Positions 17,801 to 57,990 of a DNA stretch of 64,000 nucleotides are shown here, in pieces. The stretch covers positions 372,001 to 436,000 of the forward strand of contig BCGN01000003.1 of assembly GCA_001599295.1 (NCBI GenBank). The letters run 5' to 3'. The position numbers were made by a program, and so were the translations under genes. The notes under the pieces are model-generated. The model made no database searches and was not told the DNA's origin. It saw only the letters and a list, made by a program, of their open reading frames with translations. Source of the DNA: Sporopachydermia quercuum (lineage: Eukaryota). Each line of letters opens with the position of its first letter. Position 1 is the stretch's first letter.

Positions 17801-18076
17801 ATAGCACATGGAATGTAGCAATTGACGCGTCACAACAAAAGGAGACATACCAATTGCTCGTGTTCTTTTACTTTTAGATCCTGCAGGAGCTGACTTTGAG
17901 ATCTTAGATGCAGCAGATTTAGGATCACCTTTGCTAGCCTTTAATGATGTTAGTGACATTCAACAATTGCAATTGCGCCATACTCGAGCATTGAACATCA
18001 GTTCTTGTGAGTGCAATTATTTGCTTACTGGTTTGGATGATCCTTTCGAGGATTTAAAAAAGCTGGTTATATCCAT
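14818..18076 (-). CDS. RFC1: Replication factor C large subunit; exons 18076-18029, 17938-17851, 17751-17709, 17632-14818
   Basis: BRCT domain (CLAGFTIVFTGVL), LWTVKYAP, Walker A GPPGIGKTT, MDEVDGMS. N-terminal MDITSFF exon joined by three GT-AG introns with CTAAC branch points. Confidence 0.93.
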
Positions 18077-18800
18077 GGCGCATCAAGTTCCATGAAGAAC
18101 TCAGCCAGANTTTTGTATCAAAAAATAGAATAGCCAGGGAGACTCTTTCCTTGTGATAAATGAATAGGAGCAGGCTTGCGTTAAGAATAATTAATTCACT
18201 TCTTATTTTCGTTATCCTTCACTGTTCGCGCGATACATAGTTACTTGTTATTCATAAAGACGTGTTATGGGACATCAACATTATTTGGATCACATGATAT
18301 GAACAATTAAATTGAAGAAGAGCGTTTATCATAGTTACCCGCTTGATGAATATTAAACGCATACATCTGTAAGTTATGCACAATTATACATACAGTTTAT
18401 CCTTGATTTCAGTCTGCTTGGTTCTTCCACGCATGAAACGACCAGCAAAGTGCTCTGTCTGAGCGAACGAGGCTCATACCGGCCGTAAGACAAAAAAAAC
18501 AATAAACAAATCTAACGATTGAAGAAGAATTGATATAGATATTTTTATTTGGAGTTAATTGGTGCTGTCCAATATTGGAGATCACTCAATTGTTAGTCAA
18601 GACCAAATCGTTACGTTATTGATTGGACTGGGCACAATTAAGTAGTAGAACGGCTTTATTTGACATTAAGATCTAATTAATAAATTAGCTCTAAAAAATT
18701 GTCAGCTGCCACTCTTTTGCTGATTATTGAACAGAGAAAGATACCATCCTCACAGTCGAATGATTTGAACGTATTTGAGTAGTATTGAACAGATATAAAA

Positions 18801-30420: not shown

Positions 30421-30702
30421 ATGACTGCTGTTGAATGTCTAATACATCATAACTTGGGTGACCGCTCACTCAGTTCTAGCAATGATAGTCTAGTGTATAT
30501 AAATATGAATATGAACATGAGCATGAATCTGCAACTTGGTGATAGTACAAGAGCTGGTACTACTACACCAACGTATTCTGAAAGTCAAAGAATAACTTTC
30601 GATTCTCAAGTTAACTTTGGTGATATGCTATTGGCAGCGATGGAAAAAGCTGAAATGGAAAGATTGAATGACGATCTTCGCGAGATTGAACTGAAGATAT
30701 GA
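30421..30702 (+). CDS. Small hypothetical protein (93 aa)
   Basis: ATG ORF with a helical-looking C-terminus (FGDMLLAAMEKAEMERL), a CGG-rich upstream region with TATA-like GGATATAAG, and a T-rich 3' region. No family recognised. Confidence 0.45.
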   Translation: MTAVECLIHHNLGDRSLSSSNDSLVYINMNMNMSMNLQLGDSTRAGTTTPTYSESQRITFDSQVNFGDMLLAAMEKAEMERLNDDLREIELKI

Positions 30703-32744
30703 ACTCTGATCAATAACAAAATGGAGGCAGAAAGAAATGAAATGAATCGACCCAATTGATTCTTTTCTGGCATTTGATTGTAATAAATTGGGTCTGTATC
30801 GTTCAAGGTTTACTAAAGCGTTATTATCTTCTTATTTTCTTATTGTTGTATTTGTTTTGGCTATTATTAATTTGCATTATTGAACTGTGCTGCATTGCAA
30901 AGAGGAAAAAGGGGAAAGCCTATTAGGGCTAGGAAAATTTGTCTAATTTTTTTTTTTTTGTTTTTGATTGGTTGTTTGAATGGTTGTTTGATTGTTTATA
31001 TCTTGTATTATATAATGGGATTATTTTTGTTCTAATGAATTTGTATATTTTTATGTTCTATTAAATTTTATAGCAGAGTTGTAGTGAAAGTCGATAAATA
31101 AGAGAGTAGTAGAATTCATTGCTATGATGATGTATGAATATGTGTAGTAGGGTCGGTAGGGTTGATAATTTTATCGTTCAGTGAAATGAAAGAATAATAT
31201 AAAGCATAGTGGACAAAATAGAATAGACGATAGCTACTTCGAAGCTTATTATGGAATCCATATGAATTATAAGTTTGATCGGTAATACCAAATAGTTCTT
31301 GTATGAATGTACTCAATATAGAAATATAGTAAATGCCACTGAATAGAAGTTTCATGATCGCTTTTAATGTTTTATCGACAACGCTTGTTTTGAACCTCAA
31401 ACAGTCGATTTTCTCATTTGTCTCTGACAGGTAAAGTACTGTAAATGTCATTAAATAGAATAGCTATAGTGCTATATATTGATAAATTATCAATAAAGCT
31501 TGTCTACTTATCACACATTTGTTGTTTTGCGGAGTTGAAGATTTAATCTGGATAGAAAATTCAATTTCTTTCAGGTATTACTGAAATCCTCTTCAACTAA
31601 CAGGTAGTGACGATACCATTCGTTATCTATACTACATCTGATAATGCTTTATTATGGGGTTGGCACAATTAGCGAAAAGTTATCCCAATCAACTGAGACA
31701 CTTTTGTTGGAGAATCTATGGTCATTTTCTTTCTTCAGAAAGTGTACAAATGCCTGATTTTCTGGTCCGATAATAGTCTAAACGCCAGTGATATAGATTT
31801 GTTCAAAGGCTTGAAATTCAGATTGCACTATTCACTTCAAATGCTCTANCTCTAAAAAATAAGAAAGGAATTGGTATGATGCGTCCATCTCAGGCTTATT
31901 GATTCCACACATAGCGAAAAGAACAAAAGTCAGGACCATTGATGAATGAACACAGCCACGTTCTGCGCAAAGTAAAATTAGATAATAATCCTAGTGATCA
32001 TTCTCTAAGTGGTTCACAATTTAAGGCAACTGTAGCTTGACCTGATAAAATGTCGGTCGAAAATAGAATATATTGGTTATTCACCTTCTCCACGAACATG
32101 ACATCAGTTCTATCTATATGTCCATTCAATAATCATACCAGAATAATCTCAAAATACTACTATTAACAATAGTTAAGTCAAATCATCCTTGTTACTAACA
32201 AGACTCTGATAGGCGGAAGCTCAATGATTGATGATGACAATTGTACCTCCTCTTTTTTTATGTATGTTTTATGTATTTTTTATTTTTTATTTATTTTTTT
32301 AAGTTTATTTTCATTTCATTTCTTCCCTCCCCTGTCTCATAACAGACGATATAAAATGATCGCAGTCTAGGTCCTCATTGGGTTTCTAAGCAACTGCTTA
32401 GTAAGGGGATGGGATGGGACATAATGAATGATGGATGACGATCAAATTATGTCACAGAAGAATTTCGAAATAACTTGTAGATCATAAAAATGAATATATA
32501 AAGACATTATGGATAACGGTAAATATGAGGGTAAACTCAGTAGTCTGTTGACTAGATTCAATTGGAAGTTTGCTGGTTTCACCCTGATTTCAGAGATAGT
32601 GTTAGCNAATAGACGGAACCAACAACACAACTCAACTCGTACGTTTGAGCTGGCTTAGGCTTCATCTATCCATCGCAACAATCAACTGGAATAAACTCGA
32701 AAAAGGGAACGGCAAGGAAAAGATAAGAGAAACTCAGAATCAAA

Positions 32745-33131
32745 ATGTCAATTCAAACAGGGTCATTGAACAGAATTCATTGGATTCCGTTAGCGGAAAT
32801 CAAAAGACCAATTCCTCCTGTGCTTGATTCATGCAAAATAGATACTATGATAGGTACAATCAATAATTCAAGGCAGAATAGTAAAACTGAACCAGTCTCA
32901 TATTCTGATAATACAACAGAAATGTCTCATATCGATACAGGACTACCTCCAATTGATGTTTTGTATTTGAAAGATCAAGGAAAGGTTTATTACTTTGGTT
33001 TTGGCGGTTGTCATAGATTTCAAGCTTATGAACGGTCGGGTGAAACTTACGTCAAATGCAAACTTGTACCTTGTACTAAGAAACAGTTGAGCTTGTATTT
33101 GGGAAGTAGTGTTGAGAATTTCTTCGAATAA
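32745..33131 (+). CDS. SRX1: Sulfiredoxin
   Basis: IKRPIPPVLD, PPIDV and catalytic FGGCHR. Upstream of MDH1, as in S. cerevisiae. Confidence 0.95.
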   Translation: MSIQTGSLNRIHWIPLAEIKRPIPPVLDSCKIDTMIGTINNSRQNSKTEPVSYSDNTTEMSHIDTGLPPIDVLYLKDQGKVYYFGFGGCHRFQAYERSGETYVKCKLVPCTKKQLSLYLGSSVENFFE

Positions 33132-34460
33132 TTGGCATCCAATCTTTTTAATAAAATTCCTTCTATGTACTGCATTATACTATTTGTATCATCAACAGAT
33201 ATTTGATGTAAAGCTTACGTCTTAATTCAGGGGTTGATTATTTTTCATAATCAAGAATCTCCCTGATATATGTATCGCGCGAAGGGACTCGGACCGATTT
33301 CGGCTATTAAAAATACATCTCATAATTTGAGTGAATTGAGAAACACTAAGTATCCCTTGGAAATAGTGAATTCTCGAGAAAATTCGTATACTAATGGTAT
33401 GCGTTAAAGTATGGGTTATACTGTTTTTAGTTCAGGAAAACCGTTAAATTCTAACATGCTAATGTGCCATGGCACATTAGAAAAAACATTTCTTCTTGTG
33501 AAAAGTCTCATCAGCCATTCTTAGAAAGCTTCTGCCTTCTGTCATTTACAAAGGCTAAGGAAAGTCAAAGAAAACAACTCGCAACCATCATCTACAAATA
33601 CATTATTTGCAATCTCACAGGTTTTTAAATAATTGATTTGTCCTTATTATATCCTTAGTTTTTATACCTCAATGACTATCTTCCTTCTCCCCGAATCCTA
33701 TACCGGACTCTCGGCAAATCTATAAAGATCTGGGGTTACCTTCCAGGTAAAAATCTCATAATTTGTCATGCAAAAGACACATAGTTGTTCCCACACTAAT
33801 TTGAGCAAATGGCTGCATATTAGTGCATCGAAACCAAGACAATTTGGACATTTACCCCTAATTGAAACAATTCAATTAAGACATGAATGCAAATGATATG
33901 ATCTTGTCATGACCTAAAACTCATTTATTACTTCATCTCGTACCCCAATAGATAAAAAAAAAGTAGCAGCTTGGAGCTCTAGCAGTTTTAAAATCATAAA
34001 TAATAAATACTATTTAAAGCACGTATTAATAATTTTTCTAATACATTGTAAGGTGTCCTCGTCAATTAAATATCTCAAATCAAACTAAATAAAATTATCA
34101 CAAGTTTTGCTTCCGGTTTAACCCAATACTCACATAGTACCCCATCACATCTCCGTCTGTCTGTCACATGTCTGACAATTTAACCTCAATGTCCTACCAA
34201 TCCCTCAGACGTCACGGAAAACGTTGGAAGAACCTAATTTAAATCGCTAACATTCAACGTCCAACCATTCAATTCCTATCAGTTTCTTCAGTTTTCACAC
34301 TTTCTTTCTCCTTGTCTTTGTCATTTATTTAATAGCTTCTTCGCTGTATTTCATTATATTATCCTTTTTGCACTTTGAATTATAGCATAATTGCTTACTA
34401 CTAGTTTTAGTAATATATAGTACCATAACTAACAATCAAACAATTGTACAATTGAACAAA

Positions 34461-40793: not shown

Positions 40794-43700
40794 TCAATCA
40801 AAGGTAATAACATCATTAATGATCTCAATCTCATCATCTCCAGCGTTATTACTATTGCGATTCTTCTTGTCAGCGCTGTTGCTTCTTGTCCTATCATCAC
40901 TACTAACCGTAGGTCTCATATTGGTATTTCTCTCTCTAATGGTTTTTACAGCATCCTTTATTCTTTCATCACCATCATCACTCAATTTTATTGCACCATT
41001 GACATTAATATTTCCATGCCCACGATCNTTGTCAATAATATTTTTACCCATATCCTGTGATTGCTGTTTATATCGTGGTTCCATTCTATCCATTTCAGCA
41101 GGTGTTCTTTTTGGTTAAGTTACCTCCTGTTGAACCTCCTCGTGGTCTCCAAATGATTCTTTTTCAATACTATCTTCTTTTTCAGTTGCCTCATGATCCA
41201 ACCAAACAACTTTCGCATTATTCTTCCCGGTTACATCAACAATTCCTTGTAACATAACTTCACCTCTATGAAACAACGATCTTAACAATTCAACGCTACA
41301 ACCAGTACTTGTTCCACTATCTCCAGTTATTTCACTGCCACGCAATAAATCTGTAGATGTAAACACATCATTTCTTAACCAACAATCAATTAATTTAGAA
41401 ACTGACTGAACAAACAATGACCAGTTTCTTTCATCTGCAGTGTTCAGCCANGTTTTGAAGTGAAACAATTGTAGAAATGTAAATGGCAATCTTGCTCGTA
41501 AGGCTTTGATATAATTCACGGGATCGCCTTCGATATATTTCTTTGTTTCCTTATCACATGCTAGATTGAAAATAATATNATTAAGAACATAAAGTCTTGA
41601 TAGTATTAGTTTTGATAATTTCGCAGGAGAAAGCATTTCATTATTGGCACTGGGTGATGAATTTCTTGAGTCATTCTTTGATTTATATTTCTTTCTCGAA
41701 TTATATTTCTTACCATCATTATTATTGCTGATGCTGCTATTGCTATTAATGCTACTATTGCCATCACTATTCTCATCGTTTTCCTGATTTTCAAGTCCTC
41801 CATAGTAAACACTTTCAATACTATTACATATATTATCAATAATCTCTTTCCCAGCATAACATTTACTTATCGCAAATCCCATCACTCTTGCGATATCAAC
41901 TCTTCTCAANTCTAAATTCTGCAATAATAATCTCAAGTGTACCTCAGAATACGTAGCAAGATAATTCAGGTTGCTTCTTCTTAATGGCATATAATTAATC
42001 TTCTGTTGAGAATATGGAATATTAGAAAAACCTGTTGCTTTGCTTGATGCATATAAGCTATCAAGTTTGGCTGTTTCCTCTTCACGCGATTTCGGGGTTT
42101 CTTGTAATTCAAGTTGATGATTCTCTTCCGCTAATTCTTCTATCATATAGATGTAGGCGATTTTGGACCAATAAACACCATATCGCAAAGTTTCCTTCTA
42201 AAAATTATTGTCCCGGCTGGAAATTTACTTTTCCTTTCACTTTTAGAAAATGCTTTATAATATCTTTTATAANCATCAGCTGCTAGCGAGTCATTTGACA
42301 ATTCAATGCTTGGCCAACGGTCCAAACCAGCGATTTGTTCTTGAACATATCTTTCGAGATTTTCTAGATCTGAATTGTTATGAGAAGAAGCGGTAGTGAT
42401 ATTATTGGTTGGAGTAGTAGTAGAAAGATCAATTGCAGCAGGATCAACAACTGTTTGATTCTGTTTCCAGCCACTTGCTATACAGAATAGCTTCCAACGG
42501 TAATAGACATGTAATGGATTAGCAGTGTTGAATAAGAATTCATATAGCTCATTATCACGCTCCTTTCGCATGAGAATGGCCTCAAAAATAGGTCCGTAAG
42601 CTAACACGTTTTCGATCGTTAAATGAATGATTCTGAGCATATGCAGAGATTCAGGATATTTGACTTGGATCTCCGATACCTCAGGAGTCTGTTGCCGAAG
42701 ATACNTATCTTCCGTTAGCCGGTCATGTTCTCGGTTCGGTAATCGTCGTCCTCCTTTCCNTCTGTCTTTGATCATAGCAGCTAAATCTTTCTGATAAGGT
42801 TGANATAAGTAAACTCCTCCGAACGGAGCCCAGTGTTTCCGCGTTCCGATAATCTCTGGGGGAATAGTTGCCGAGAATGTTTGCATGTCCACTTTGCTTA
42901 CAAATTTAACAGCTAGTCTTCTCCCTTCTCCACAGTGATATTTTTCAAGTTTTTCATGGAAATATTCCGCTATCCGACGACTTTTGAACTCAACAAATGC
43001 AACCGATCCTATAAGCTTGTAAACACAATTATTGAGTTTATCGTATGGAACAAGAACCACATTTTTAACCATTTGTGTTTCAATCGGAATACCGAGAGAG
43101 GAAAACATTTGCTCTAAATTGGCCTCTGTGAACTTTGGAGGTAACCCCACAATCCGAAGAATGAACGTGTCTTCCGCTAAACTTATAGTTGTACTATCTC
43201 GGTCATTATCATCTCCAAATAAGGTGTCAATTTGTCGGCCAAGTTCGAGATTCGATGATTCCNTTTCCTTGACATAAAGTTTGCGTCTTGGCATGGCTGG
43301 TGCTGTAGCAGAGGTATACCGAGAACGGAATACTTCTGGTTCGGAAGCACGTATTTTCTTAACCGAATTACAGTCAGCGATAACATAAGGNTTGTTTTGG
43401 GTCTCTGCTACCCGTTTTTGAGAATGTTTTGCCAAATCACGCTCCATATTTGGTAATAAGTCAGCTTTTGAAGGGAGAAAACTTGTACTGTCATTAATAC
43501 CTGTGGCTGTACTTGTTGTTGAGTTTGTAGGTACAATAGGGGCACGTGGATTCAATCTCGGATCAGCACTTTGAACATGCGGCGCAGCTGCAGAAAAACT
43601 CTTCTGATTCAAACCCGGTTTACTTCTAAAATCAGAATTTCGTAATTGTGGTGTAGCTATAGCTGCACGTGTATTGATGCTCCTATTTATATTACTATCA

Positions 43701-44756
43701 GCATCACTACGCCTATTAACTGTATGCGTATCTTTATCCAATAAAGGGATATCAAATGCCATTCCCAACTCATCGAACAGATCAACCTGTTCATCGGGAG
43801 CAAGCTGGGAATACAGGTCATAGTCAAGGGATCTATCTGAAACATGAAAATGGTGGTAATTTTGTTGATAATGTTGGTGCTAAGAGCTCCTTTGCCGTTG
43901 ATATTTATACCGCTGGGTTTGTTGATATTCGGCTCGGAAATCCTTATTTTGTCGAGACCAATTACCAGAAGAATCAAAATCTCGGCGCTCATTCTGACTG
44001 GAATGAGCTCCATCCCATTTTTTGTTGCGATAATCTCTGGATCTATTCCAGGTCCTATTCGGATTCCAGTTCCGATACCAGTGGGAACTACGTCGATCGT
44101 AGTTATTCCGATTCGGACCTTCGGCATATCGTTCTTTCAAAGATTTCGAACGATCCCAAATATTGCTTACACCCGTTAACTTTTCATCATCGTCCAATTT
44201 TTCATAATGCAACTCCGGTCGGACGTAGTAGTTTGTCGAGTACATTGAAGAGCTCCCCCCAAATATCGGCTTTGGTTTTCTTTGNCTTTGGTTTTGCAGA
44301 AATGGGTTCCGCTTCGTCTTCCGAGCCAGACGGAAGCAATACATGAAATTCATCATCATCGTCATCAATTCCGTCATCTAATCGAAATGGAACGCCTTCT
44401 GAAGTACCCGAAGAATTACGTCTTCCTTCTATTGTGCCATTTTTCTTACTATTGTTTTGACTACTATTATTGTTAGGATTCTCAGTCAAATCAATGTATG
44501 TTCCCCTGAGATTTTCTATAGGATTACTTCCAGATGCCGATGTCAAAATATTAGAGGATTCTTCATAAGAAGGTCTAGGTTTTGAATATAAAGCCTCATC
44601 TTCATCATCAGAATCTAACCAACCAGCAGGGATGCCATTGACACTTGCAATTCTTCGTGGTGGAGTAGTTGATTGATTAGGTTTATTGGTATCAANGGAA
44701 GAGCCCGAAAGGTTTGAATTTGTTTGTTCAAAGACTTTAGAGCGCTGTGACGCCAT
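40794..44756 (-). pseudogene. U2 snRNP-associated SURP protein (U2SURP/SR140-like; RRM-SURP-CID) with several reading-frame breaks
   Basis: RRM (LRIVGLPPKFTEANLEQMF...AFVEF), SURP (IHLTIENVLAYGPIFEAILM...LHVYYRWKLF) and CID-like (VMGFAISKC...RLYVLN) segments. Broken by a frameshift near 44200-44280, in-frame TAG 43880-43882, a frameshift near 42145-42190 and in-frame TAA 41115-41117. Confidence 0.7.
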
Positions 44757-46222: not shown

Positions 46223-46843
46223 GGCGAAAATCTATTGATCGATCCTAGAAGTTTCAGATTCAAAACTGAAAAAGTTAATCAAAGGTTTGAAACATGCCTT
46301 TTAATATTCCATTATTTTCTTTTATATAANGATAGCGCTCCTTCATCAATAACAACCTTCCTCCTTTGTTATTTATTGATCCTGTACAGCAAGATGACCG
46401 GATCGAANGTCACGCAGGGAGACTTGAAGNGCCCCAACTGAAGTGTCCAAGATGCAAGAATAAATGAATGGAGAGATACNACGAGTACTTTACATTGAAC
46501 AATATTCTCTATTTTTTAATTTANTACGATGAATTACAGATTATATTCTACAGTATTGAGAATAGATTGATAAGAAACAAATATCAAACGATACCAGAGA
46601 ATAATACACAATATTCTTCTATAATCGTCAGATTTCCTATATAAATGATTACATAATCTCATAGGATTCAACTGACATTTTTCTCCGCCAAAAATTCATT
46701 TTTGCTCTAAATAGTGNTTCATCAGACATAAAAATGTGCTTGAAAAGGGTTACTCTAGTCGAATTACTTGGGGTAAGTGAAAGGCATAAAAGTTTCAATG
46801 CATTTCGAAAACTCATATTTTGAGATTAGCGTGTTGCGCCAAA

Positions 46844-47488
46844 ATGGCTGATCTGACGGCACAAGAAATAGACTTGATTCGATCTCAGCACTACTGGAAT
46901 GAACGATATGCAAAAGCTGAGTCAAATGAAACATTTGACTGGCTCTTCACATGGGAGAAGTTGAGTCCCTGGATACAGAAGTATATCCCTGATAANAGTA
47001 AGACGATTTTGATGTTGGGTTGTGGTAATAGTACGCTGAGTGCGGATATGTATGATAATGGATATCAGAACATAGTAAACGTTGACTTCTCAGCTGTATG
47101 TATTGAAGAGATGGCTAAGATGAACTCTGAAAGAACGAAAATGAAATGGGTTGTAGCCGATGTAATGGATATGAAATTTTTGGAAGATGAAAGTATTGAT
47201 NTCGCGCTTGATAAAGCTACTCTTGATGCTTTTCTTAGCTATCGTGGCAGCGTATGGGAACTACCCCCAGAGATCAAAGAAGATTGTGACAAATATATGA
47301 ACGAAGTACACAGAATACTGAAGAAGGATCATCCTTTCTTATGTATATCGTTTAGACAGCCTCATTTTCTTAAACCTGTGTTGGCGAGGCCTGATTACTG
47401 GTCATTTGATTACGGTCCTGTTGATGAAGAAAATGCCAATAAAGGTTTCGTAACATACTATGGGTTTAGGATGATAAAATACAGTTGA
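46844..47488 (+). CDS. Class I SAM-dependent methyltransferase, EEF1AKMT4/METTL13-N-like
   Basis: Motifs YWNERY, ETFDW, ILMLGCGNS, NVDFS, DKATLD and ISFRQPHF. Confidence 0.85.
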   Translation: MADLTAQEIDLIRSQHYWNERYAKAESNETFDWLFTWEKLSPWIQKYIPDXSKTILMLGCGNSTLSADMYDNGYQNIVNVDFSAVCIEEMAKMNSERTKMKWVVADVMDMKFLEDESIDXALDKATLDAFLSYRGSVWELPPEIKEDCDKYMNEVHRILKKDHPFLCISFRQPHFLKPVLARPDYWSFDYGPVDEENANKGFVTYYGFRMIKYS

Positions 47489-48694
47489 AAATTTATGAGA
47501 ATAGATAGGCTCTACTGTCTGAACCAATANTAGACGCAAAATTCATAATAATTATCAAGTATTTCCGGGAACTAATTTCGAGAACCAGTAATTAGTTATA
47601 ATTAGTTCTAATAAATCACCGATCGAGCTTTCATTCATCAAGCGAACGAACATCGAGTCTTCTTCTGATGTGAGAGAACCAGTACCTGCATAAAGATGCT
47701 TCTTTATACTTATTAGCTGCATGAACTTGACTTCAACTGCGCTCAACAGGTATTCGAAGAGTCCTAGCTGATATTATCATCCACAACTCTATCATCAAAC
47801 CCAATGTTATACTATTTTGGCGTGTTCTCGGCCATCTCATGAGTGAGTCCTATCATATTGGCTTCATGTAATGAAGTAATAAAATATTAAAACAACAAAT
47901 TGATCGTCTTACCGTCTTATAGCCCCTATTTTCTAACGAATCTTTTACATGTCGTATACATGTCGTATACTTTCCTTTAATTTAAGCCGAGACTAAAATT
48001 TTGCAAGAGTTCTGCATCTCATTTCCTTTTCATCACGACTGGTTTCCAGAAACCAGATCCATTGACATTCAGCGCATATCAATCCTGTACAGATGAACAA
48101 ATCACCCAACTATTCAAATCAGTCATTTATTTCACTTCGATGATCGCATTATTTACTTTTATTTTCTCCTCGGAGCAATAAGCAACTTATTAGTTGCAGT
48201 CTCAATTACATGTACTGAATTTCTGGTCCATATTGATTGAATCAATTCCTCGGTAAGTGTAGTACTGAGAATGCTCTTGAAATGACAACGGATTAGTGTC
48301 AAATTACCTAGTAAATGTTAGATTACAACTTTTTTTGGCGATCTCACCAGTTGCTACATCTTTTTGCGTACGTAAACTAGTGTTATGGTGTACATTAAAA
48401 TCTTATGCATAACTCATGTACAATCAGTGCAACATTTAAACTTTAAATAACAAAGATTCACTTAATGCACTAATATGCATAAATTAAAGACCTTAATAAT
48501 GCTACATACTCATGCATATAATTGAATTCTTATGTTTANTCTTTTTTTTTAGCCGATATATAAGTTTCTTTTACCTTGTGTATCCGAACAAGCCTCAAAG
48601 TTTTATATGAATTAAGTAGATAATCAGAATANTACGAAACTATCGTAATATATATATAAAACGTAATACAATACAACAAGTCATTTTTAATAGC

Positions 48695-49567
48695 ATGCAT
48701 AGATGTTGAAAACCGATTAGGGCTTAACTAATAAGAAAGAGCTTCAACTAAAAGTTCAATCAAGTTAAGATTAAATCAAAGCTGTTTAAATCAGCTCTAA
48801 GTGTACCTTGTTATTTTACAAAACTCTAGAATAACTCTTCATCTAAATAAGGATAGATGAATCAGATGAAACTCTTTCAGTTTGTTCAATTCTTCGATAT
48901 ACCAGGGCATTCTCACCTCTGGTATTTCACAGTTCTACATATAAATTTTTTGTGGCATTATTCTATCTTTTATTTTTGGAATTCTATTTAAACAAGGGGT
49001 TTCTCTTTTTTTTTTTGATTATTCCTTTTATTCTGCTTATTGTTATTGATACAAATGATGAATACATATATCATCGAATACACTATCAGAGGAACGCACT
49101 AGTAAGTGGTTCACTGTACTGATCTACTAGAACAGGTATTCACTACCGCTTGGTTAAGGGAAACGCACACAAGTGGTTCACTTAACTGTTCAGGAAAGCT
49201 TTGTATTGCGATCATTAGTGTTCAATATCTCGTGCACGCCCTCAATAATTCTGCAGGTATTTATAATTTATGCTATAGAATTCCAAAAATAAAAGATAGA
49301 ATAATGCCACAAAAAATTTATATGTAGAACTGTGAAATACCAGAGGTGAGAATGCCCTGGTATATCGAAGAATTGAACAAACTGAAAGAGTTTCATCTGA
49401 TTCATCTATCCTTATTTAGATGAAGAGTTATTCTAGAGTTTTGTAAAATAACAAGGTACACTTAGAGCTGATTTAAACAGCTTTGATTTAATCTTAACTT
49501 GATTGAACTTTTAGTTGAAGCTCTTTCTTATTAGTTAAGCCCTAATCGGTTTTCAACATCTATGCAT
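48695..49567. repeat. Perfect 293-bp inverted repeat (arms 48695-48987 and 49275-49567), 287-bp spacer
   Basis: The arms read as exact reverse complements from ATGCATAGATGTTG to GGAATTCTAT on manual comparison. Confidence 0.95.
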
Positions 49568-50077
49568 CCTATCAGAATCCGTAGAAATCATCTTTTGTTT
49601 CCCTTGAAACAAATAAATGTGTACAGGGAAAGTAATTCCATAACATGTTGACTTATAATGCTAAATAANGGTGTTTCCGGTCAATTACAGTGTACGTGGC
49701 GTACATATATACCAAGTCTTTTATTGTTTATACATCGCCAGGCAGGACAGCCTTGTGAGCAAAGAATAGGTACTTGATGTGCCCTTTCTTCACACAAACT
49801 TTAAACCAATAGTCTTTTGACATAGTATGAAGTGTATAGTTAGTTTACCCCAGAATCACCTTTTGGCTTTCGTTTCTTTGTCTTGTAGCGTAAATCCGAA
49901 ATATCTCTCGGTTTTAGGGGCACGTGATTAATACCTTTCTCCATAATTTCACTGAAATGTGTAGGTCCACTGAATATTTTCTCAATTACTTATTTTTGTT
50001 ATATTACCCAAAGCCTTTAATTTTAGGAGTTGTGAGACTGATTGAAAACGGTGAAGACTAAGATTAAAAAAATAATC

Positions 50078-50149
50078 ATAACAGGCTAATTTAGCAAAAG
50101 AGTTGAAATCGTAAGCTAAGGTTGGCACCTCGATGTCGACTCAACCTAT
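50078..50149 (+). pseudogene. rnl: NUMT: mitochondrial LSU rRNA (rnl) domain V fragment A
   Basis: ATAACAGGCT...GGCACCTCGATGTCGACTCA is the conserved peptidyl-transferase region of bacterial-type LSU rRNA. Confidence 0.88.
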
Positions 50150-50272
50150 AAAACACTAANTAATATATTGATAATAGAGATTTATAAATAATTAAATTAT
50201 TTAATTCTTTTATTATTATGTACCTCTTCATGATTTTCATTTCTAAATGTTTTATTGATCATAATTAATTTT

Positions 50273-50382
50273 TTCTCAGCCTACAAATAATATTAAATAA
50301 TTATCTCCAGTAACTAATATAATCATAAAGAATGTAAGTATAGCAAAAAATGCAAAGAATCTTTGTTGATGAGGATCTGATC
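50273..50382 (-). pseudogene. nad5: NUMT: mitochondrial nad5 fragment
   Basis: Reads [34 protein letters not shown](TGA=W)E, a conserved ND5 segment in the mitochondrial code. Confidence 0.9.
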
Positions 50383-50508
50383 TATTAATATTAAATGATC
50401 TGGATGTAATGTTAATAATTGTAATAAATTATAAAATTATTAGAATACTGTTAATTATAATACAAGCTAATAATAATCTTATCGTAAAATAAAATAATTA
50501 ACCCCCAA

Positions 50509-50585
50509 GTTAAACTAACTCAATTGGTAGAGTGTTCGTTCGTTCTGTAGTCGAAATGTTTTAGGTTCGAGCCCCAAATTTAACA
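50509..50585 (+). pseudogene. NUMT: degenerate mitochondrial tRNA, probably Thr(UGU)
   Basis: Acceptor GTTAAAc/aTTTAAC, D-arm ACTCAATTGGTAGAGT, T-loop GGTTCGAGCC and TGT at 50546-50548. An extra GTTC disrupts the anticodon stem. Confidence 0.7.
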
Positions 50586-50589
50586 ATAA

Positions 50590-50648
50590 CCTTATAGAGT
50601 CAATAAGAAGGGTTCGGCTGTTCGCCGATTAAAAGATACTGGAGTTGG
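50590..50648 (+). pseudogene. rnl: NUMT: rnl domain V fragment B
   Basis: AAGAAGGGTTCGGCTGTTCGCCGATTAAAAGATACTGGAGTTGG is the A-loop (H92) region that normally follows fragment A directly. Confidence 0.85.
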
Positions 50649-52877
50649 ACCTTCCATACTTTGTGTAAATCAAGCATGTAATCCCAAGGGGTTGGGTCAC
50701 GATTATGGTCTCGTGACTCTTTTTTGGTGAACATTTGGTCCTTTTTGGACTATCTCACGGTGACTGAATGTTGGCCCAACATTCTGTTTCCTCTATGAAC
50801 AGGTTTATCTTTTATTGAGTTGGCTGATTCCTGTTTATGGCATACTAGAAGCATGTTTCTATCACTTTTTCTATGAATTCTGTAGATAAATCCATGATCT
50901 AGGGTATTGGTTCGCTTGTGCTTCTCATCAATTGAGTTGAAAAACATAATATAATCTGTATTCAATTTTAATTTATGTAAGTAGCTATTCAGAAACCATC
51001 TAGATACATTGTTTATGATCAGTTTATCGACCGGTTTTGTTTGCTTACTATAAACTAAAAAATGTATTACTTTTCTTGAAATGAGTGATTAAGTTTAGTA
51101 TTGAATGTAGGATTATGCATCTATTTTCTTTTTGGGAATTATTTATGCACAATTATGCACCGTTATATTTAAGTTTTACTATACAAAAAATGTAAATTAA
51201 GGTTTTACATACATATTAATGCATATTATGTTTATGTACAAGTTATCGGAATGTTGAATTCATCTACGCAAAAAAAAAAGTAGCACTGGTGAGATCGCCC
51301 TTTCTATTGATAAAATAATATCTTTCGTGTTAACTTAATGTATTCTCTCGTAAATGGTATAATAATCAACCTATTGGGTTATGAACCTGTATGCGGTCTG
51401 TATTACTAGTAAGAACGTCCATTGACAACAAGCACTTCACCAATTTCCTAGCTATACATTTTCTCAATTTCAAATTAGAATTTGAGATATTTCCTCATGA
51501 ATTTCAACACCGACCCGATCCATCGAATGACCAGTTCCAACTCAGTTCGTTCGACACTCCCTCCTGGCTGCATTATTTCGCCTACAATGGTTCCCTTAAT
51601 AGAAATCTTACCGACGTATTTTATCCAAAAAGATGCATATAAATGCATGAAAAGTGCAGATATTTCTCCGCATTGCAGTATTCCACAGCACAGCACGTCA
51701 TCTTAAATCGGTTTTATCCGTCACTTGACCTTTGATAACAATTAACATTTGCTCAATACGCGGAACTAGCAACTTTCAGTAACGAATAGCTAAATATGCA
51801 CCGAATAGTTCTAATTATAATCCGGAACTTCGGCCGGAATTCTAAAAGTGTATTCCATGCGATACTCATCGTTGGAACACCCTAGTTTGTCTATAGTACA
51901 CTCTTTTGTCAGCTACAGCTACAATCCCTTTTTGCTTGATTTGCCCAAATAAGCACCAGCCGTACTAGCGAAATGGTGTAATGCTTGCTTATTTTTGTTT
52001 CATCTCAACTCTTTCAACATCCATTTTTCCATCAATGATCATTGATTTCTAGCTATTAAATAAAGACGATCAACTAAATGATACTACCATTATTCCACTC
52101 ATTAGAAATTCTCATTAATGAATATATTCTTTCTAATAATATATGCCTCCTCACTTCTCCTACTCTTTCTCGCTCGATCAACATAGTACCCCTGAGGATT
52201 TCATCCCTTCTGCATGATCATGTATCCCCTCTTTACATGTAATATTTAACTTTGAGATTTAAACTTTAAAAATCTCACATGTACAAACAACTCAAAAGCC
52301 ACCCAAATGGTTTATTTACTACACAAAAGCTGGAGAAAAAAAGCTGGATAATTGAATGAGAACAGCTATCATCAAGAGTGATTTTATTGTCCTCTTTCTT
52401 TATTTACGGTGGTGATTTAAGAAGGATAACTTCTGCTTAGTTGTGTTATGCTTGTTCTATGTATAGGCAGTGAATGACTGATTTGGTTTTAGGTGCTTTG
52501 TTACTGACAACTCCTTGAGATTGGAAATTCAAAGAAAAAGAGAAGTAAATAGTATCATAAGTTTAGTACTCTCTCAAGTTGGGCTTGAAATTTATTGTTT
52601 GGCCTTAACGAGATCCGTTGATTTAGCAGAAACGTCCTGTACTATATGTATTCTATACCAAGGTGGTGGTGATATCTAGGAGATTAGTCGGTTTAGAAGC
52701 TTTTGAAGATTTCTGATAGAAAATTCCGCTACCTTTTTCTACGTTACAGAGAATACGGAGAACTGACAGTAGAAGAAAAGAACGAACAAAAGACAAAAAC
52801 AGAAACAGAAAGGACAACAGGACCTGATTTTAACAACAGAAATCACACCGAAGGCGAATGAGTACAGATAGGTCACA

Positions 52878-54287
52878 ATGGATCCTACCCTAGCAAAAGA
52901 TTATGTCCCTCCGAATGAACGAGAAAGTTCCAGTCATTATGATCTACCAACAACACCTTCATACTTAATCCCAAATATAGATCCCATTCTACCATATGTG
53001 CTGGAGGACCTGAATTCAAACTCAGGCATTGATGCTCCTATACAATCGGATGAATACCGAAATAAACAATATCACCACCATCACCACCACCACCATCATC
53101 ATCATCTCAATAATAGCATCAGTCATAATAAGCAACAAAATGAAGATAAGAAAGTCCATTACAGTTCAATTCCTAGAATTCCTTCAGCCCTTACACCAGC
53201 TTCATCACCATCTAGCTCATCCTCATCTTTGGTAAGCGTCGGGAAAGAAGCTACTGTTGGAGAAATTACTGGTGGAATTTCTGACATTGGGATAGAACCC
53301 AATGCTGAAATCAGCAAGAGTGATTCAAGCACATCAGTAGTTTCTGGTGCAACGAAAAGCTCGCAAATTACCAATACAAATGTTCTGAATGAGGTGTATC
53401 AAGAAACAGTGGTGCAGTCGGACCATAGAATAATCAATGCTGCAGATTTAGAAGAAGTGCCTAACGGAGTCACAAGACAAGCTAAAACAATAGATGGATA
53501 CCAATTTCCCACTCATAGATTATCAACAGTAATGCAAGACTCTTCCAAGCTGCCGTTAGTTATTGTGGCTTGCGGATCTTTCTCTCCTATTACATATTTG
53601 CATTTACGAATGTTTGAGATGGCAATGGATTCTATTCGTGAACAAACCAGATTTGAGGTGATTGGTGGATACTACTCTCCTGTATCTGATCATTATAAGA
53701 AACCAGGACTTGCTCCTGCACATCATCGAGTACGAATGTGTGAACTAGCATGCGAAAGAACTAGTTCGTGGCTTATGGTTGATGCTTGGGAAAGTCTCCA
53801 GACCCAATATATGCGAACAGCACTAGTATTGGATCATTTCAACGAAGAGATCAACATCAAGAGACAAGGTGTTAAGATGTTTGATTCGAAAACAGGGAAG
53901 GTTGTGCAGCGAGGGGTGAAAATAATGCTTCTTGCCGGTGGAGATTTGATTGAGAGTATGGGAGAACCAAATGTGTGGTTGGATGAAGATTTACATCATA
54001 TTCTTGGTAGATATGGTTGTTTGATTGTAGAAAGGACAGGGTCAGATGTTCGAAACTTCTTACTGTCACATGATATAATGTATGAGCATAGAAGAAACGT
54101 TTTGGTTATCAAACAATTGATTTATAATGACATTTCTTCTACAAAAGTAAGGCTGTTTATAAGAAGAGAAATGTCTGTGCAGTATCTTTTACCTAACAGT
54201 GTGATACGGTATATTCAGGAACATAGTTTATATGTTGGTGAAAGTGAGCCCGTTAAACAAGTTCTTGAGGATAAGAAGAAAAACTAA
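52878..54287 (+). CDS. NMA1: Nicotinamide/nicotinate mononucleotide adenylyltransferase
   Basis: LVIVACGSFSPITYLHLRMFE and DISSTKVR motifs; poly-His tract in the N-terminal region. Confidence 0.95.
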   Translation: MDPTLAKDYVPPNERESSSHYDLPTTPSYLIPNIDPILPYVLEDLNSNSGIDAPIQSDEYRNKQYHHHHHHHHHHHLNNSISHNKQQNEDKKVHYSSIPRIPSALTPASSPSSSSSSLVSVGKEATVGEITGGISDIGIEPNAEISKSDSSTSVVSGATKSSQITNTNVLNEVYQETVVQSDHRIINAADLEEVPNGVTRQAKTIDGYQFPTHRLSTVMQDSSKLPLVIVACGSFSPITYLHLRMFEMAMDSIREQTRFEVIGGYYSPVSDHYKKPGLAPAHHRVRMCELACERTSSWLMVDAWESLQTQYMRTALVLDHFNEEINIKRQGVKMFDSKTGKVVQRGVKIMLLAGGDLIESMGEPNVWLDEDLHHILGRYGCLIVERTGSDVRNFLLSHDIMYEHRRNVLVIKQLIYNDISSTKVRLFIRREMSVQYLLPNSVIRYIQEHSLYVGESEPVKQVLEDKKKN

Positions 54288-55281
54288 GAGCTAGGTAAAT
54301 TGTATTATACAAGCTGATGGGTCTGTGTTTCGTTAATATATTAGTTATTGAGCATGTAAATACTGTCATTTCGATATGTTCTATATAATCTTTCATTATC
54401 TATTTTCACCCTTATTAATCAGAGAGAGTTCGGTAGTATACATGAATCTTGCATAATCTTGCACAACTGCGTTGAGTTCTGTCTGATATATGCTGATACT
54501 ATCTCGTTCCATATTCTGCATAAGAGTTGACAAACAAAAAAATGTTTGACATCGAACCCGTGATTCTTGTTGTTAAATTCTAAATATAAATCAGCTTCCA
54601 AAAATCTTAAAATTAAGGTAAACTCACATTAACTGTTGTTTCGTCACGATGATACACGCTTTTCATTAGTCTTTATACAAATGATCCAACAATTACTCTG
54701 ACAGCTTTCAGATTATATAATATTCTATATTGTAGCCAACAAATCTACTATCAGTTTCCATTACTCGAAAAGATTAGAAACCCATCAAATCGCCATAAAA
54801 CTTCACAACTCAACATAAATAAATCTAGCATTTATTTTTGTCATATGCTTGTCTTATTCCGAGGTTCCAACCTATTTCGGATTCATTCTTACCGCTTTTC
54901 TACTGATATCTTTCCTCCCTTCAGTACCGTCCCATATTGTGCACCACATGAAAATATCCCTCATCCGTCATCCGTCACCCGTGATCGCCTGCTGTATGCA
55001 GCACATGCATTTGAATGCACAACTTGCTCAATCTGCATATCTCTCCACCTTTTTTGAAACATTTCATTCTCGCCATTACTACCACCTGATTTACGTCTCA
55101 TCACCACACTTCACAGCATAGGATATCTATTGAAAATCAATGTATTGAAAGAAACAAAAAAAAATAAGAATTTAAAGCAGGCATTATACACGACTGTTAA
55201 GCCGGCACTAGAACTATTTTTCTCCCACAGGGACATTGTGGGAATGCATAGAAAAGACTGGGGATATGTCTCAGTAACACA

Positions 55282-57990
55282 ATGGAAAGGGTATCAAATG
55301 ACACAACCCATGAACATCGAAGTCTGGAAGCGGAAAAGGCTTCGGAACACAGGGAGAACCAGTATTTAGATGAGAGATTAAGTCAAAATAGCATTAGCAG
55401 CTCGGATAAGCAAAACGGAGATTTGGAGAATGAAGAAAACTCAGATCTGTCAGAAGAATCTGATGACTCCTTGACAGAGGATCTTGAACTGATTGGTAGA
55501 TCTCTGTATCCCTTACAGGGCTTCACGGTTCCTTCATTTCCATCTCTACCAACATCATTTCATCTAACACCTCCTGTGATGTCCAGAGTTATCAGTACAG
55601 TATCTACGTATTATAGAAGCTATATAGGAGAAGAACATGGAAGAGACACTGAACAAGAAGAAGGCTCTGCTCAGATAGTGGATGGTTCTGCCGCAGAAGT
55701 ACCAAACCCTTCAAGCAATCAAATGAGAAAATTCCTAGCAGATTTACGTAATGGATTCTCAATAAGAGCTGCTTTGGAACATTTGTATCAGTCTGAGAAC
55801 CTTAGACACACTCATCCTGATGCCGATTCTCAGTATATTGAAACACCAGTAGAAGCTCAAACAGGTATATGGGACCCGGAAGGTGTTTCATTTGCTACAG
55901 ACCCAGTAAATGCTCCTCCGTTTCAACAGTTTGTTGTTCCCCAAAGTAGCCTGTTGGGTGACGATGAAGTGAAACCCAGAGTCACTTATAGACGGAGAAA
56001 GAGAAAGACCCGCAGAAAGACCAACGGAGTGCCCAAAATTAATACAAGAGGCTCAGAAGGTAACAGCACCGAGAATACTTTAATGCAGGAAAGTATAGGA
56101 ATTCAGGAAGCTGATATTTCTGTTTCCGAATCGCCCGAAGACGACGTTTCTGATGGAGAAATTCATCTCAAACAGCTTCGGAAGAGAATTTTGGCTCTCC
56201 GATCTCTAAACTTACCTGATAAAAAGAAAGATATGCTAGTTCAGAGCCTTATGACAGAAAATTACTTCAAGAGCAAAGGAATACCTAATTTTTCAGCAGC
56301 ATCAGAAGAAGAAGAAGAGGAAGATGTTGATGCTGATGCTGATGTAGAAGAAGAAGATTACCATCATTCCAGAAAGTATCGTCATAATCATTTATCACCA
56401 ATTCTGAAGCTCCCACGGACGTTTGAAAGGATTATTTCCCACCCAGAATCAGATGTCAGTGATTATGAAGACGTTGAACTATCACTAGCAGATCTTACTC
56501 CCACATACCACGACCAGGAAAACCAAATACTGGGATGCAGGCATTATCAGCGGAAGTGTAAACTAGAATGTTCTATATGTGGGAAATGGGTTTCTTGTAG
56601 ATTTTGTCACGACGAGAAAACCCTTGATCATAAATTCGTTCGCCAGAAGACTACTAATGTACTTTGTATGGTCTGTTTCACTCCTCAGGAAGTCACGGAC
56701 GTTTGCTGTAATCCAGAATGTGGGATCACATTTGCTGAATATTTCTGTAGTAAATGCAAGCTTTATGACGATGACAGCACCAAGTCTATTTACCATTGCG
56801 ATGACTGTGGAATTTGCCGTATTGGCGAAGGATTGGGAATAGATTATTTCCATTGCAAGTCGTGTAACGTGTGCATGGCAATTGAGCTAGAAAACAACCA
56901 TAAATGCATTGAAAGATCAACCCAATGCGACTGTCCAATATGTGGAGAATATATGTTCACGTCTACCAGGAAAGTAGTTTTCATGTCTTGTGGCCATGCT
57001 ATTCATCAAGATTGCTATCAAGAACATACCAAACGTTCATTCAAATGTCCTACGTGTTCTATGTCTGTTATTAATATGGAAGCTCAGTTTCGTATTCTTG
57101 ATCGCGAAATCGAAAGGACTTTTCTGCCGGAACCATACTGCAACTGGAAATCGGTGATCTATTGCAATGACTGCAGAGGACGCAGTGTTGTCAGTTTCCA
57201 TTTCCTAGGCTTAAAATGTGATTTCTGTCAATCCTACAACACTGTACAAGATAGATTGATTAAAGACGGTAAAGATGTTGAACTGAACATTAACCTAGCT
57301 GATATTTCTGTCCAGGAGATCAACTCTGAACAAATTATCTCATTGGTAAACGAAATAAGTACCTTTTCACCAGCTGAAGTAGCTAATAACAAGAAATTGC
57401 GATCAAGAGCAGTTTCTCAGTCAAATACAATTCTTTCTATGAATCCATTGGAACATACAAATACCAATAGCAGTACTTCAGATGCTATGCACACGGATGA
57501 GTTTCTAAAGGAGTATCTACAGGAATTACAAGAGCAGCATAAATCCCGCGGGTTTACTGGATCTGCTAGAGATAGCAATAATGATGATAGCAGTGTCAAC
57601 GGAAGTACCAATTCACTTGGAGATGCTGCTATGCAAAGCTGGGAGTCTGCAGTAAGAAACTTCAGAACGTGGGAAGAAAATCTGCGTAAGAGTTGGGAAT
57701 CACGAGAACGTAACCAGTTTTCCTTTAGTTTATCAAAGCTTGGTATTACTGAGGAAGAAGAACAGGAGGGCATACAGGAAAGTATTAAGGATACCGAGAA
57801 GGATAACAGTAAGCTTGCCAAAGGGGAAGCTACAATGAAGAAAGGGCAAGAGATAGGTAAAGATAATGACCAGGGCAGTGCTGATGGTGTTAACGATGTT
57901 TATGAAGATAACGACGAGGAAGAGGACGAAGAAGAGGACGAAGAAGAGGATGAAGGTCCCGTGAGACAGTTTTTCAAACAGATGCATTAA
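55282..57990 (+). CDS. RCHY1/Pirh2-like E3 ligase (CHY, CTCHY, RING, zinc ribbon)
   Basis: GCRHYQRKCKLECSICGKWVSCRFCHDE, YHCDDCGICRIG, DCPICGEYMF...CGHAIHQDC...CPTC and FHFLGLKCDFCQSYNT. Confidence 0.92.
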   Translation: MERVSNDTTHEHRSLEAEKASEHRENQYLDERLSQNSISSSDKQNGDLENEENSDLSEESDDSLTEDLELIGRSLYPLQGFTVPSFPSLPTSFHLTPPVMSRVISTVSTYYRSYIGEEHGRDTEQEEGSAQIVDGSAAEVPNPSSNQMRKFLADLRNGFSIRAALEHLYQSENLRHTHPDADSQYIETPVEAQTGIWDPEGVSFATDPVNAPPFQQFVVPQSSLLGDDEVKPRVTYRRRKRKTRRKTNGVPKINTRGSEGNSTENTLMQESIGIQEADISVSESPEDDVSDGEIHLKQLRKRILALRSLNLPDKKKDMLVQSLMTENYFKSKGIPNFSAASEEEEEEDVDADADVEEEDYHHSRKYRHNHLSPILKLPRTFERIISHPESDVSDYEDVELSLADLTPTYHDQENQILGCRHYQRKCKLECSICGKWVSCRFCHDEKTLDHKFVRQKTTNVLCMVCFTPQEVTDVCCNPECGITFAEYFCSKCKLYDDDSTKSIYHCDDCGICRIGEGLGIDYFHCKSCNVCMAIELENNHKCIERSTQCDCPICGEYMFTSTRKVVFMSCGHAIHQDCYQEHTKRSFKCPTCSMSVINMEAQFRILDREIERTFLPEPYCNWKSVIYCNDCRGRSVVSFHFLGLKCDFCQSYNTVQDRLIKDGKDVELNINLADISVQEINSEQIISLVNEISTFSPAEVANNKKLRSRAVSQSNTILSMNPLEHTNTNSSTSDAMHTDEFLKEYLQELQEQHKSRGFTGSARDSNNDDSSVNGSTNSLGDAAMQSWESAVRNFRTWEENLRKSWESRERNQFSFSLSKLGITEEEEQEGIQESIKDTEKDNSKLAKGEATMKKGQEIGKDNDQGSADGVNDVYEDNDEEEDEEEDEEEDEGPVRQFFKQMH

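Follow-up and report, generated by a model that had tools for sequence, protein, structure and literature searches.

Inverted termini, a perfect inverted repeat and captured mitochondrial DNA in a gene-free interval of Sporopachydermia quercuum: a possible relic of a cut-and-paste transposon

Class II transposons are described as scarce among the budding yeasts (PMC4316626). The yeast hAT elements presented in that account carry terminal inverted repeats (TIRs) of 18-28 bp, are flanked by target-site duplications (TSDs) of 8 bp, measure about 3 kb and contain hexamer repeats up to 200 bp from their ends (PMC4316626). Inverted repeats (IRs) are also a component of one kind of yeast regional centromere, for which arms of 0.5-4.3 kb are reported (PMC12711049). 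Finally, complex nuclear insertions of mitochondrial DNA (NUMTs) that combine 2-4 fragments can, according to the cited description, arise in one break repair by end joining (PMC11372161).

The locus considered here combines inverted termini, a perfect IR and a NUMT within a single gap between two genes. Tentatively, and with confidence somewhat short of even, positions 48337-51299 (2,963 bp) can be read as a decayed, non-coding and non-autonomous cut-and-paste element (class II, hAT-like), which would lie in an ordinary spacer and would have undergone later damage and repair. Positions refer to the window, that is, the whole stretch of 64,000 nucleotides that was analysed.

The gap and its flanking genes

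The following genes delimit the interval:
46844-47488, forward strand: left flanking gene, a small SAM-dependent methyltransferase (EEF1AKMT4 / MGC2408-like; Pfam Methyltransf_31/11/25; PDB 2pxx, E 9.8e-24)
52878-54287, forward strand: right flanking gene, an NMN adenylyltransferase (NMA1/NMA2-like; Pfam CTP_transf_like)

Over 279 residues, the product of the right flanking gene is 79% identical to Nma1 of S. cerevisiae. The lineage itself is deep-branching, its best RFC1 identity being 58%. The gap between the two genes spans 5,389 bp and was originally singled out as the longest gene-free interval in the window, a distinction that it loses to the extent that a second interval, 28850-34386 (5.5 kb), is likewise empty of Pfam matches. 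Removal of the 48337-51299 element leaves 2,426 bp of spacer, which is a normal length for the window because the other ORF-free gaps there measure 2.0-2.9 kb. The GC content of the gap is barely lower than that of its surroundings (0.32 vs about 0.35), and does not form a trough.

The inner inverted repeat and the mitochondrial insert

The middle of the gap is composed, from left to right, of the following parts:
48695-48987, forward strand: perfect part of the left arm of the inner IR (a single 293-nt unitig at twice the single-copy depth in read sets X1, X2 and X3)
48988-49274, no strand: spacer of the inner IR, 287 nt, single copy (unitig at single-copy depth)
49105-49228, no strand: spacer segment that has a diverged paralogue outside this locus (match to a 1,270-nt contig)
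49275-49567, reverse strand: perfect part of the right arm of the inner IR (repeat analysis and read-set unitigs)
49568-50077, no strand: single-copy stretch of about 510 nt from the right arm to the NUMT (nuclear-depth contig of 589 nt, 49538-50126, 0 differing letters)
50078-50149, forward strand: NUMT piece 1, a fragment of domain V of the mitochondrial LSU rRNA (rnl; RF02541, model positions 2474-2545)
50252-50428, reverse strand: NUMT piece 2, from nad5 (ND5 residues about 103-143; E 2e-15 in phmmer against PDB)
50509-50585, forward strand: tRNA-like pseudogene whose anticodon loop has 11 nt (RF00005, 36.3 bits, E 5.2e-5)
50598-50684, forward strand: NUMT piece 3, the same rnl fragment continued (mitochondrial contig joint from 50149 to 50598)
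50685-51069, no strand: single-copy DNA to the right of the NUMT (within a 24-kb contig at nuclear depth that starts at 50605-50651)

The arms of the inner IR (48685-48987 and 49275-49577) are 303 nt long, 99% complementary and 287 nt apart, and 293 nt are identical between them (48695-48987 = 49275-49567). This is the sole repeat of at least 30 nt with at least 90% identity in the 64-kb window. In each of the three read sets both arms are represented by one 293-nt unitig, whose depth compares with the single-copy depth as 195.5 vs 96.3, 71.1 vs 33.8 and 43.8 vs 22.7-23.8, respectively. This ratio of about two means that only two copies of the arm exist genome-wide. The spacer unitig shows about single-copy depth (86.6, 22.9 and 21.6). 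The perfect IR claimed in the original prediction is thus borne out by the reads. Its spacer contains a 21-nt direct repeat spaced by 67 nt. In X1, X2 and X3, a 1,270-nt contig of about single-copy depth matches 49105-49228 with 15 differing letters and 8 gaps, and joints link it to short arm-like pieces. Among the pieces listed, the depth bins suggest one or two other loci for this paralogue. The same part of the spacer gives no RNA-structure signal (z -1.5 and -1.2).

To the right of the IR lies a NUMT, formed from the organism's own mitochondrial DNA. Contigs at 25-35 times the nuclear depth match 50078-50149, 50273-50382 and 50598-50684, the rnl and ND5 fragments are recognizable, and the insert is joined to nuclear DNA on both sides by contigs of single-copy depth (49538-50126 on the left, and those starting from 50605-50651 on the right). 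Both junctions are found in X1 and X2, and the right one alone in X3 among the matches listed. The first rnl piece matches the bacterial-type LSU rRNA model RF02541 with E 3.4e-6 and 25.2 bits, a score below the gathering score of 50. The contig covering 50273-50382 of the nad5 piece is 610 nt long, has depths of 2853, 1192 and 584, and differs from it at 9 of 110 letters. The tRNA-like stretch is reported by ARAGORN solely at a relaxed threshold, and, as read from the depth bins, none of the mitochondrial contigs listed covers it at 80% likeness; it is probably of mitochondrial origin too. The mosaic NUMT originally proposed is therefore present at 50078-50684, with two rnl pieces, one nad5 piece and one tRNA-like piece. 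Its rnl fragment is split: a mitochondrial contig (depth 1126, X2) passes from 50149 to 50598 via 12 other letters, in place of which the nuclear copy holds 448 nt of AT-rich, partly mitochondrial DNA. Mitochondrial-depth contigs have loose ends ahead of 50078, and a further loose end lies past 50684. The split suggests either that a second insertion is nested in the first or that the donor molecule was rearranged. Of the DNA on either side of the NUMT, 49568-50077 has no match in Pfam or Rfam and 50685-51069 none in Pfam.

Outer termini and the origin of the interval

The ends of the 2,963-bp element and their immediate surroundings are as follows:
48329-48336, no strand: left copy of a possible 8-bp TSD, CTTTTTTT (6 of 8 letters match 51300-51307)
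48337-48357, forward strand: left inverted terminus, 21 nt (perfect 15-mer extended to 21/22 nt)
48358-48566, forward strand: left subterminal region, with TGCATAA at 48406 and 48476 (forward) and 48403 (reverse) (weak collinear similarity to the right end)
51070-51279, reverse strand: right subterminal region, with TGCATAA at 51113, 51143 and 51153, all on the reverse strand (motif count and alignment)
51280-51299, reverse strand: right inverted terminus, 20 nt, one base less than the left (perfect 15-mer extended)
51300-51307, no strand: right copy of the possible 8-bp TSD, CTTTCTAT (6 of 8 letters match 48329-48336)

The 14-mer core of the termini has two matches in the window, namely the termini themselves, where 0.11 are expected; a metagenome scan returned 0 matches to the termini. 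Both begin with GGCGA, which does not resemble YARNG, the usual terminal consensus of hAT elements. When 48337-48484 is aligned locally, under stringent settings, to the reverse complement of 51299-51141, the score is 30; 300 dinucleotide shuffles give 14.4 ± 1.8 (maximum 23), and a control in direct orientation gives 17. Without the core the score falls to 18 vs 14.3 ± 1.8 (maximum 21), which is not significant alone. What survives of the degenerate outer IRs of the original prediction is a pair of 21/22-nt termini, from which weak similarity continues inward for about 150 nt. Outward, the similarity stops sharply at the ends, the 200-nt flanks scoring 9 vs 10.2 ± 1.4 in shuffles.

The subterminal regions are marked by the motif TGCATAA: 6 of its 21 copies in the window lie within two 230-nt subterminal blocks, where 0.15 are expected, a figure whose P value is inflated by the choice of the motif after the data were seen. 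The TGCA dyads mentioned earlier fade into a mild enrichment, with 9 ATGCAT in the gap vs 3.7 expected at the window rate. The flank repeat (CTTTTTTT vs CTTTCTAT) is imperfect and T-rich; its chance probability is 0.007-0.018 for one length, and roughly 0.07-0.15 after the 10 lengths tried. Along the ends, the similarity is uneven and passes from a perfect terminus through motif islands to none, a pattern more in keeping with transposon ends than with a palindrome that decays uniformly.

The structures, their copy numbers and the mitochondrial source of the insert are shown by the data above; that the element is a transposon, how the events were ordered and that nothing here functions at present is what we infer. 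Between the methyltransferase gene and NMA1, a spacer of ordinary size (about 2.4 kb) would have received a 2,963-bp non-coding element, bounded by 21/22-nt inverted termini and a now degenerate 8-bp flank duplication, and with inward-pointing TGCATAA motifs in the 200 nt next to each end. The interior, its coding capacity gone, would have recorded later damage and repair. There, a 293-bp inverted duplication may have formed around the 287-nt spacer, its arms being identical either because they are young or because gene conversion keeps them so. End joining at a double-strand break may also have captured mitochondrial DNA, about 0.6 kb as several pieces, in one or two events. If this is so, the locus adds a further cut-and-paste transposon relic to those of the budding yeasts, where such elements are scarce. 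It would also illustrate clearly how insertion, inverted duplication and NUMT capture can build up a long gap without genes, and would be a caution against taking such gaps for centromeres.

Rather unlikely, but still the nearest competitor, is a break-prone palindromic site that never held a transposon, in which the repeats stem from fold-back or template-switch repair and breaks at a hairpin or cruciform were patched with mitochondrial and other filler (a "trap locus"). A search of 55 stop-to-stop ORFs (at least 35 aa, Pfam, E ≤ 0.1) detected no relic of a transposase, reverse transcriptase or integrase, as such a site would lead one to expect. Only 500 nt separate the perfect 293-nt IR from the mosaic NUMT, and the perfect identity of its right arm stops at 49568, where the stretch without a Pfam or Rfam match starts. 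The replacement of 12 nt by 448 nt within the rnl fragment is most easily explained by a second break near the same spot. The earlier idea of a site repeatedly acquiring DNA has support in the element with inverted termini and in the split NUMT inside it; repetition as such is not required, since a single break repair can join 2-4 fragments into a complex NUMT (PMC11372161). The events need not be linked either: the nad5 piece differs from the present mitochondrial DNA at 9 of 110 letters, whereas the arms are identical, and the NUMT lies neither in the spacer nor at an arm boundary. Both samples compared have the same structure, which also counts against this reading. A break-prone site does not predict the sharp outer boundary, the possible flank duplication or the oriented subterminal motifs.

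Quite unlikely is a small regional centromere of the IR type, with the 287-nt spacer as its core, the 293-nt arms as its flanks and transposon and NUMT debris beside it. A near-identical, genome-unique IR pair in a 5.4-kb gene-free interval of a deep-branching lineage agrees with the published cases as far as these are described: they lie in long intergenic regions, their arms are 99-100% identical and can be as short as 0.5-0.8 kb, and no sequence is common to different chromosomes (PMC12711049; PMC5010909), while the centromeric intergenic regions of related orders measure 2.2-9.3 kb (PMC12711049). Against this, the arms here have about half the smallest size reported, and the paralogue of the spacer part occurs at one or two other loci (by the same reading of depth bins, among the pieces listed) and not once per chromosome. 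Neither Ty5-like relics nor shared motif arrays are found, the GC trough is absent, another Pfam-empty gap of 5.5 kb occurs in the same window, and the spacer is of ordinary length once the 3-kb element is removed. The CDEI-type motif on which the original prediction drew, ATCACGTG at 49921-49928 on the reverse strand, is at chance level, the window having 7 copies of CACGTG, one of them in the gap (49921). In a point centromere (CDEI-CDEII-CDEIII), the stretch of about 80 nt after CDEI exceeds 85% AT and leads to a CDEIII with a CCG core. Here the AT content of the 86 nt next to the motif is 60.5% or 70.9%, and no CCGAA occurs within 132 nt, so that this candidate, lacking CDEII and CDEIII, is rejected. 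With a motif at chance level, a gap that is not uniquely long, a barely lowered GC content and arms of 0.29 kb, the centromere claim finds no positive support. About as unlikely is the full proposal that the 0.9-kb perfect IR might be the centromere of this chromosome, the smallest of the IR type yet, amid transposon debris and beside captured mitochondrial DNA. If true, IR centromeres would be known at smaller sizes than before, and a new lineage would enter the picture of yeast centromere turnover.

Highly improbable is a hairpin-RNA locus, whose IR transcript would form a 293-bp double-stranded stem and yield small RNAs against paralogous sequence: perfect 293-nt arms, a 287-nt loop and the presence, elsewhere in the genome, of diverged sequence paralogous to pieces of arm and spacer would suit it, but evidence of a promoter or of conservation was not found and the paralogue resembles the spacer more than the arms.

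Comparison with described yeast systems

With the point centromeres of the Saccharomyces type the locus shares one CDEI-like motif, and differs from them in an AT content not exceeding 85% and in lacking the CCGAA core. Its likeness to the IR centromeres of Komagataella phaffii and Barnettozyma, as these are described, consists of a near-identical inverted pair, a unique core, a long intergenic region and a repeat sequence unique to the locus (PMC5010909; PMC12711049). This likeness is one of sequence, and the spacer here has a paralogue; the arms measure 0.29 kb vs 0.5-4.3 kb, and the core 0.29 kb vs about 1 kb.

The mitochondrial insert resembles the complex yeast NUMTs in that a single nuclear site unites several mitochondrial fragments of mixed orientation with DNA from other sources, and departs from those in the cited description in that two neighbouring parts of rnl are separated by the remaining pieces (PMC11372161).

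Compared with the yeast hAT elements Rover, Roamer and mRover1 (Sarilar et al., 2014; PMC4316626), the element described here is without a known transposase relic, a second copy or a matching autonomous element, and its interior carries an inverted duplication and a NUMT. Within the published description, however, the likeness extends to the termini (21/22 nt here vs 18-28 bp), to a possible 8-bp flank duplication (here 6 of 8), to a short motif in both orientations up to 200 bp from the ends, to the decay into copies without transposase and, for Roamer, to a length of about 3 kb (PMC4316626).

Layout of the gap

The gap is a 5,389-bp spacer whose limits are set by two genes, both identified by Pfam and by similarity to proteins of known structure or name. 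Its nested structures, the inverted repeats and the nuclear copy of mitochondrial DNA (NUMT) of the original prediction, are real, and so is their nesting:

46844-47488, plus strand: small methyltransferase gene, whose stop is the left limit of the gap
48337-51299: element, read here as a putative decayed hAT-like transposon
48337-48357 and 51280-51299: outer inverted repeat, the termini of the element
48695-48987 and 49275-49567: arms of the inner inverted repeat, with its spacer at 48988-49274
50078-50684: NUMT
52878-54287, plus strand: NMA1-like gene, whose start is the right limit of the gap

The gap contains a single start-codon ORF of at least 80 aa, an 83-aa frame. Of 62 stop-to-stop frames of at least 35 aa in 47300-53000, 55 were scanned against Pfam, after leaving out four inside the flanking genes, two that repeat frames of the opposite arm and a single nested one; for one gap frame the mitochondrial-code reading was used. 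None of them has a Pfam match above chance level at E <= 0.1. Rfam yields no matches at the gathering score in the whole window and, at E <= 1, only a tRNA-like and a weak snoRNA match in the gap. The search for tandem repeats gives nothing notable.

The inner repeat is the sole long repeat of the 64-kb window, and is returned by the repeat search as two 303-nt arms (48685-48987 and 49275-49577), 99% complementary and 287 nt apart. Contigs from three public runs (X1, X2 and X3; two samples, two studies) were compared with 46525-56500. In all three the arms collapse into one 293-nt unitig, with depths of 195.5, 71.1 and 43.8 against single-copy depths of 96-99, 33.8 and 22.7-23.8, while the unitig of the spacer (48958-49304) stays near single-copy depth (86.6, 22.9 and 21.6). 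The arms are therefore identical over 293 nt and present twice per genome, both copies at this locus, and the inverted repeat is no assembly artefact. Judging from the depth bins among the pieces listed, the genome has elsewhere one or perhaps two relatives of the arm plus spacer that have diverged and been rearranged, because a 1,270-nt contig of about single-copy depth matches spacer positions 49105-49228 (15 other letters, 8 gaps) and is connected to short arm-like pieces by joints from 48739 to 48825 and from 48855 to 49154. A small-RNA gene in the region of this spacer paralogue was considered and rejected, as there is no fold signal. The window also carries 69 isolated single N spread over its 64 kb, which have the appearance of ambiguous or unresolved base calls, not of masking.

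The mitochondrial insert

The NUMT opens with domain V of a bacterial-type LSU rRNA (50078-50149; Rfam), a piece of the mitochondrial LSU rRNA gene rnl. A contig of mitochondrial depth (1126 in X2) links 50149 directly to 50598 through 12 other letters; 50598-50684 is thus the continuation of this rnl fragment, in which 12 nt have given way to 448 nt. Inside that 448-nt stretch, approximately residues 103-143 of ND5 (E 2e-15) are encoded at 50252-50428 on the minus strand. The organism has a mitochondrial complex I gene. Positions 50273-50382 are covered by a contig at depths of 2853, 1192 and 584, 25-35 times nuclear, with 9 of 110 letters different. A tRNA-like sequence at 50509-50585 includes all four arms, an oversized 11-nt anticodon loop and a visible TTCG tandem duplication; ARAGORN calls it tRNA-Thr at a relaxed threshold and finds no tRNAs at default settings. 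The outer junctions are crossed by nuclear-depth contigs, both of them in X1 and X2 and, among the matches listed, the right one in X3. From these pieces, depths, mismatches and crossed junctions, the NUMT is real, mosaic, as originally described, and not very young.

The left edge at 50078 splits TAGGG|ATAACAGG, and the mitochondrial contig has TAGGG before the edge. We take this position and its staggered-cut pattern to be those of an omega-intron homing endonuclease site (I-SceI type) in rnl, and the captured fragment may for that reason begin where mitochondrial DNA was cut in this way. Current mitochondrial contigs continue uninterrupted across the site.

Termini and the centromere question

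The outer repeat has a perfect core of 15 nt and reaches 21/22 nt in all. When 48300-48690 is aligned permissively with the reverse complement of 50937-51336, the score is 130 (shuffles 76.7 +/- 9.1, maximum 110). Stricter scoring retains only 48337-48484 against 51299-51141 (30 versus 14.4 +/- 1.8), and without the core the stricter score is not significant (18 versus 14.3 +/- 1.8; direct-orientation control 17). Of the degenerate outer repeats first proposed, the terminus pair holds, with only weak similarity inward of it. The outer ends of the core are the exact limit of inverted similarity, the 8 bp flanking each terminus match at six of eight positions, and six of the window's 21 copies of TGCATAA, oriented inward, are found in the 230 nt next to one or other end of the element (Poisson 1.4e-8, a value inflated by the post hoc choice of the motif). 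The sharp boundary, the flank match and the inward motif together suggest the ends of a cut-and-paste transposon rather than an evenly decaying palindrome. The latter, with a 1.36-kb insertion in its right arm, was rejected: the terminus matches perfectly, the next ~130 nt only weakly and a further 200 nt not at all. On its complementary strand the core terminates in CCA, presumably resembling a tRNA 3' end. An LTR with a primer-binding site was likewise rejected, since on neither side does similarity continue past the motif and there is no retroelement relic farther out. The 20/21-nt terminus has no match in the metagenome scan, and its motif as a literal string retrieves only unrelated matches in the literature.

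That the gap, as originally suggested, or its inner repeat is a centromere is improbable. Budding yeasts do have centromeres of the inverted-repeat type, whose identical arms can be as small as 0.5-0.8 kb (PMC12711049; PMC5010909), but the arms here are half that size. The CDEI-type motif ATCACGTG occurs at chance level (CACGTG is found seven times in the window, once in the gap) and is accompanied by neither an AT-rich CDEII nor a CDEIII core. The GC content of the gap (0.32) is only slightly below that of its surroundings. Nor is the gap distinguished as the longest gene-free interval, because 28850-34386 (~5.5 kb, ORFs of at most 134 aa) is as empty of Pfam matches, with none in 24 frames of at least 55 aa. 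In S. cerevisiae, NMA2 and NEM1 lie at most 10 genes away from CEN7 and CEN8. The Pfam and PDB annotations of the window include none of the centromere landmark genes named in sections 9, 11 and 12 of PMC12711049, and the text of that paper, gene maps apart, contains no NMA, RFC1, MDH, NEM1, YAH1, VTI1, RUD3, TVP18 or PHO9.

Relatives and proposed origin

NMA1 relatives occur at 25 loci in metagenome contigs; six further genes of the window were looked for beside them, and none was present. The best locus offers only 339 nt upstream, which do not align. In the genome itself, a second contig (111 kb, single-copy depth) matches the conserved NMA1 part at 53547-53792 with 46 of 246 letters different, indicating an NMA2-like paralogue, and the NMA1 of this locus has 11 consecutive histidines (53073-53105). 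Identity to named proteins peaks at 83% (NMA1 core), 66% (CHY-RING) and 58% (RFC1), and the distance to all named budding yeasts is about equal. CUG is decoded as leucine, since three of four CTG codons aligned to S. cerevisiae Nma1 stand opposite Leu. The gene pairs VTI1/YMR196W (8450-12278) and RFC1/RUD3 (14821-20291), presumably neighbours in S. cerevisiae, are adjacent here too, although their proteins share only 53-58% identity with those of any named yeast. On the minus strand of 41115-43762, two adjacent ORFs of 343 and 539 aa have 4 nt in common, and the upstream ORF has Surp and RRM domains. The two may be parts of a single gene interrupted by a frameshift, intron or N.

The layout in X2, from the second study, is unchanged from the reference. 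It differs by substitutions at 48412, 48454, 50635 and 50706, one nucleotide fewer in the T-run at 48330 and four extra T after 49005. For a site said to acquire DNA repeatedly, the two samples show no sign of ongoing turnover, a weak test as they are nearly identical overall.

The most economical account is an insertion followed by repair scars in non-functional DNA. A transposon-like element of 2,963 bp would first have inserted into the spacer, which measures 2,426 bp without it. Other ORF-free gaps in the window span 2.0-2.9 kb, so the gap length needs no special explanation. Later interior events would include an inverted duplication, its identity kept or made, and the capture of mitochondrial DNA by end joining. 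Such capture is familiar from the repair of breaks in yeast, often with two to four fragments joined per event (PMC11372161). The interruption of the rnl fragment is a hint of a second break almost at the position of the first, but it would also result from a rearranged donor molecule or from a single complex event. Yeast hAT elements have 18-28-bp terminal inverted repeats, 8-bp target site duplications, a length of ~3 kb and hexamer repeats at most 200 bp from their ends, and are known to decay into transposase-less relics (PMC4316626). The locus would then be a new instance of already known kinds of event.
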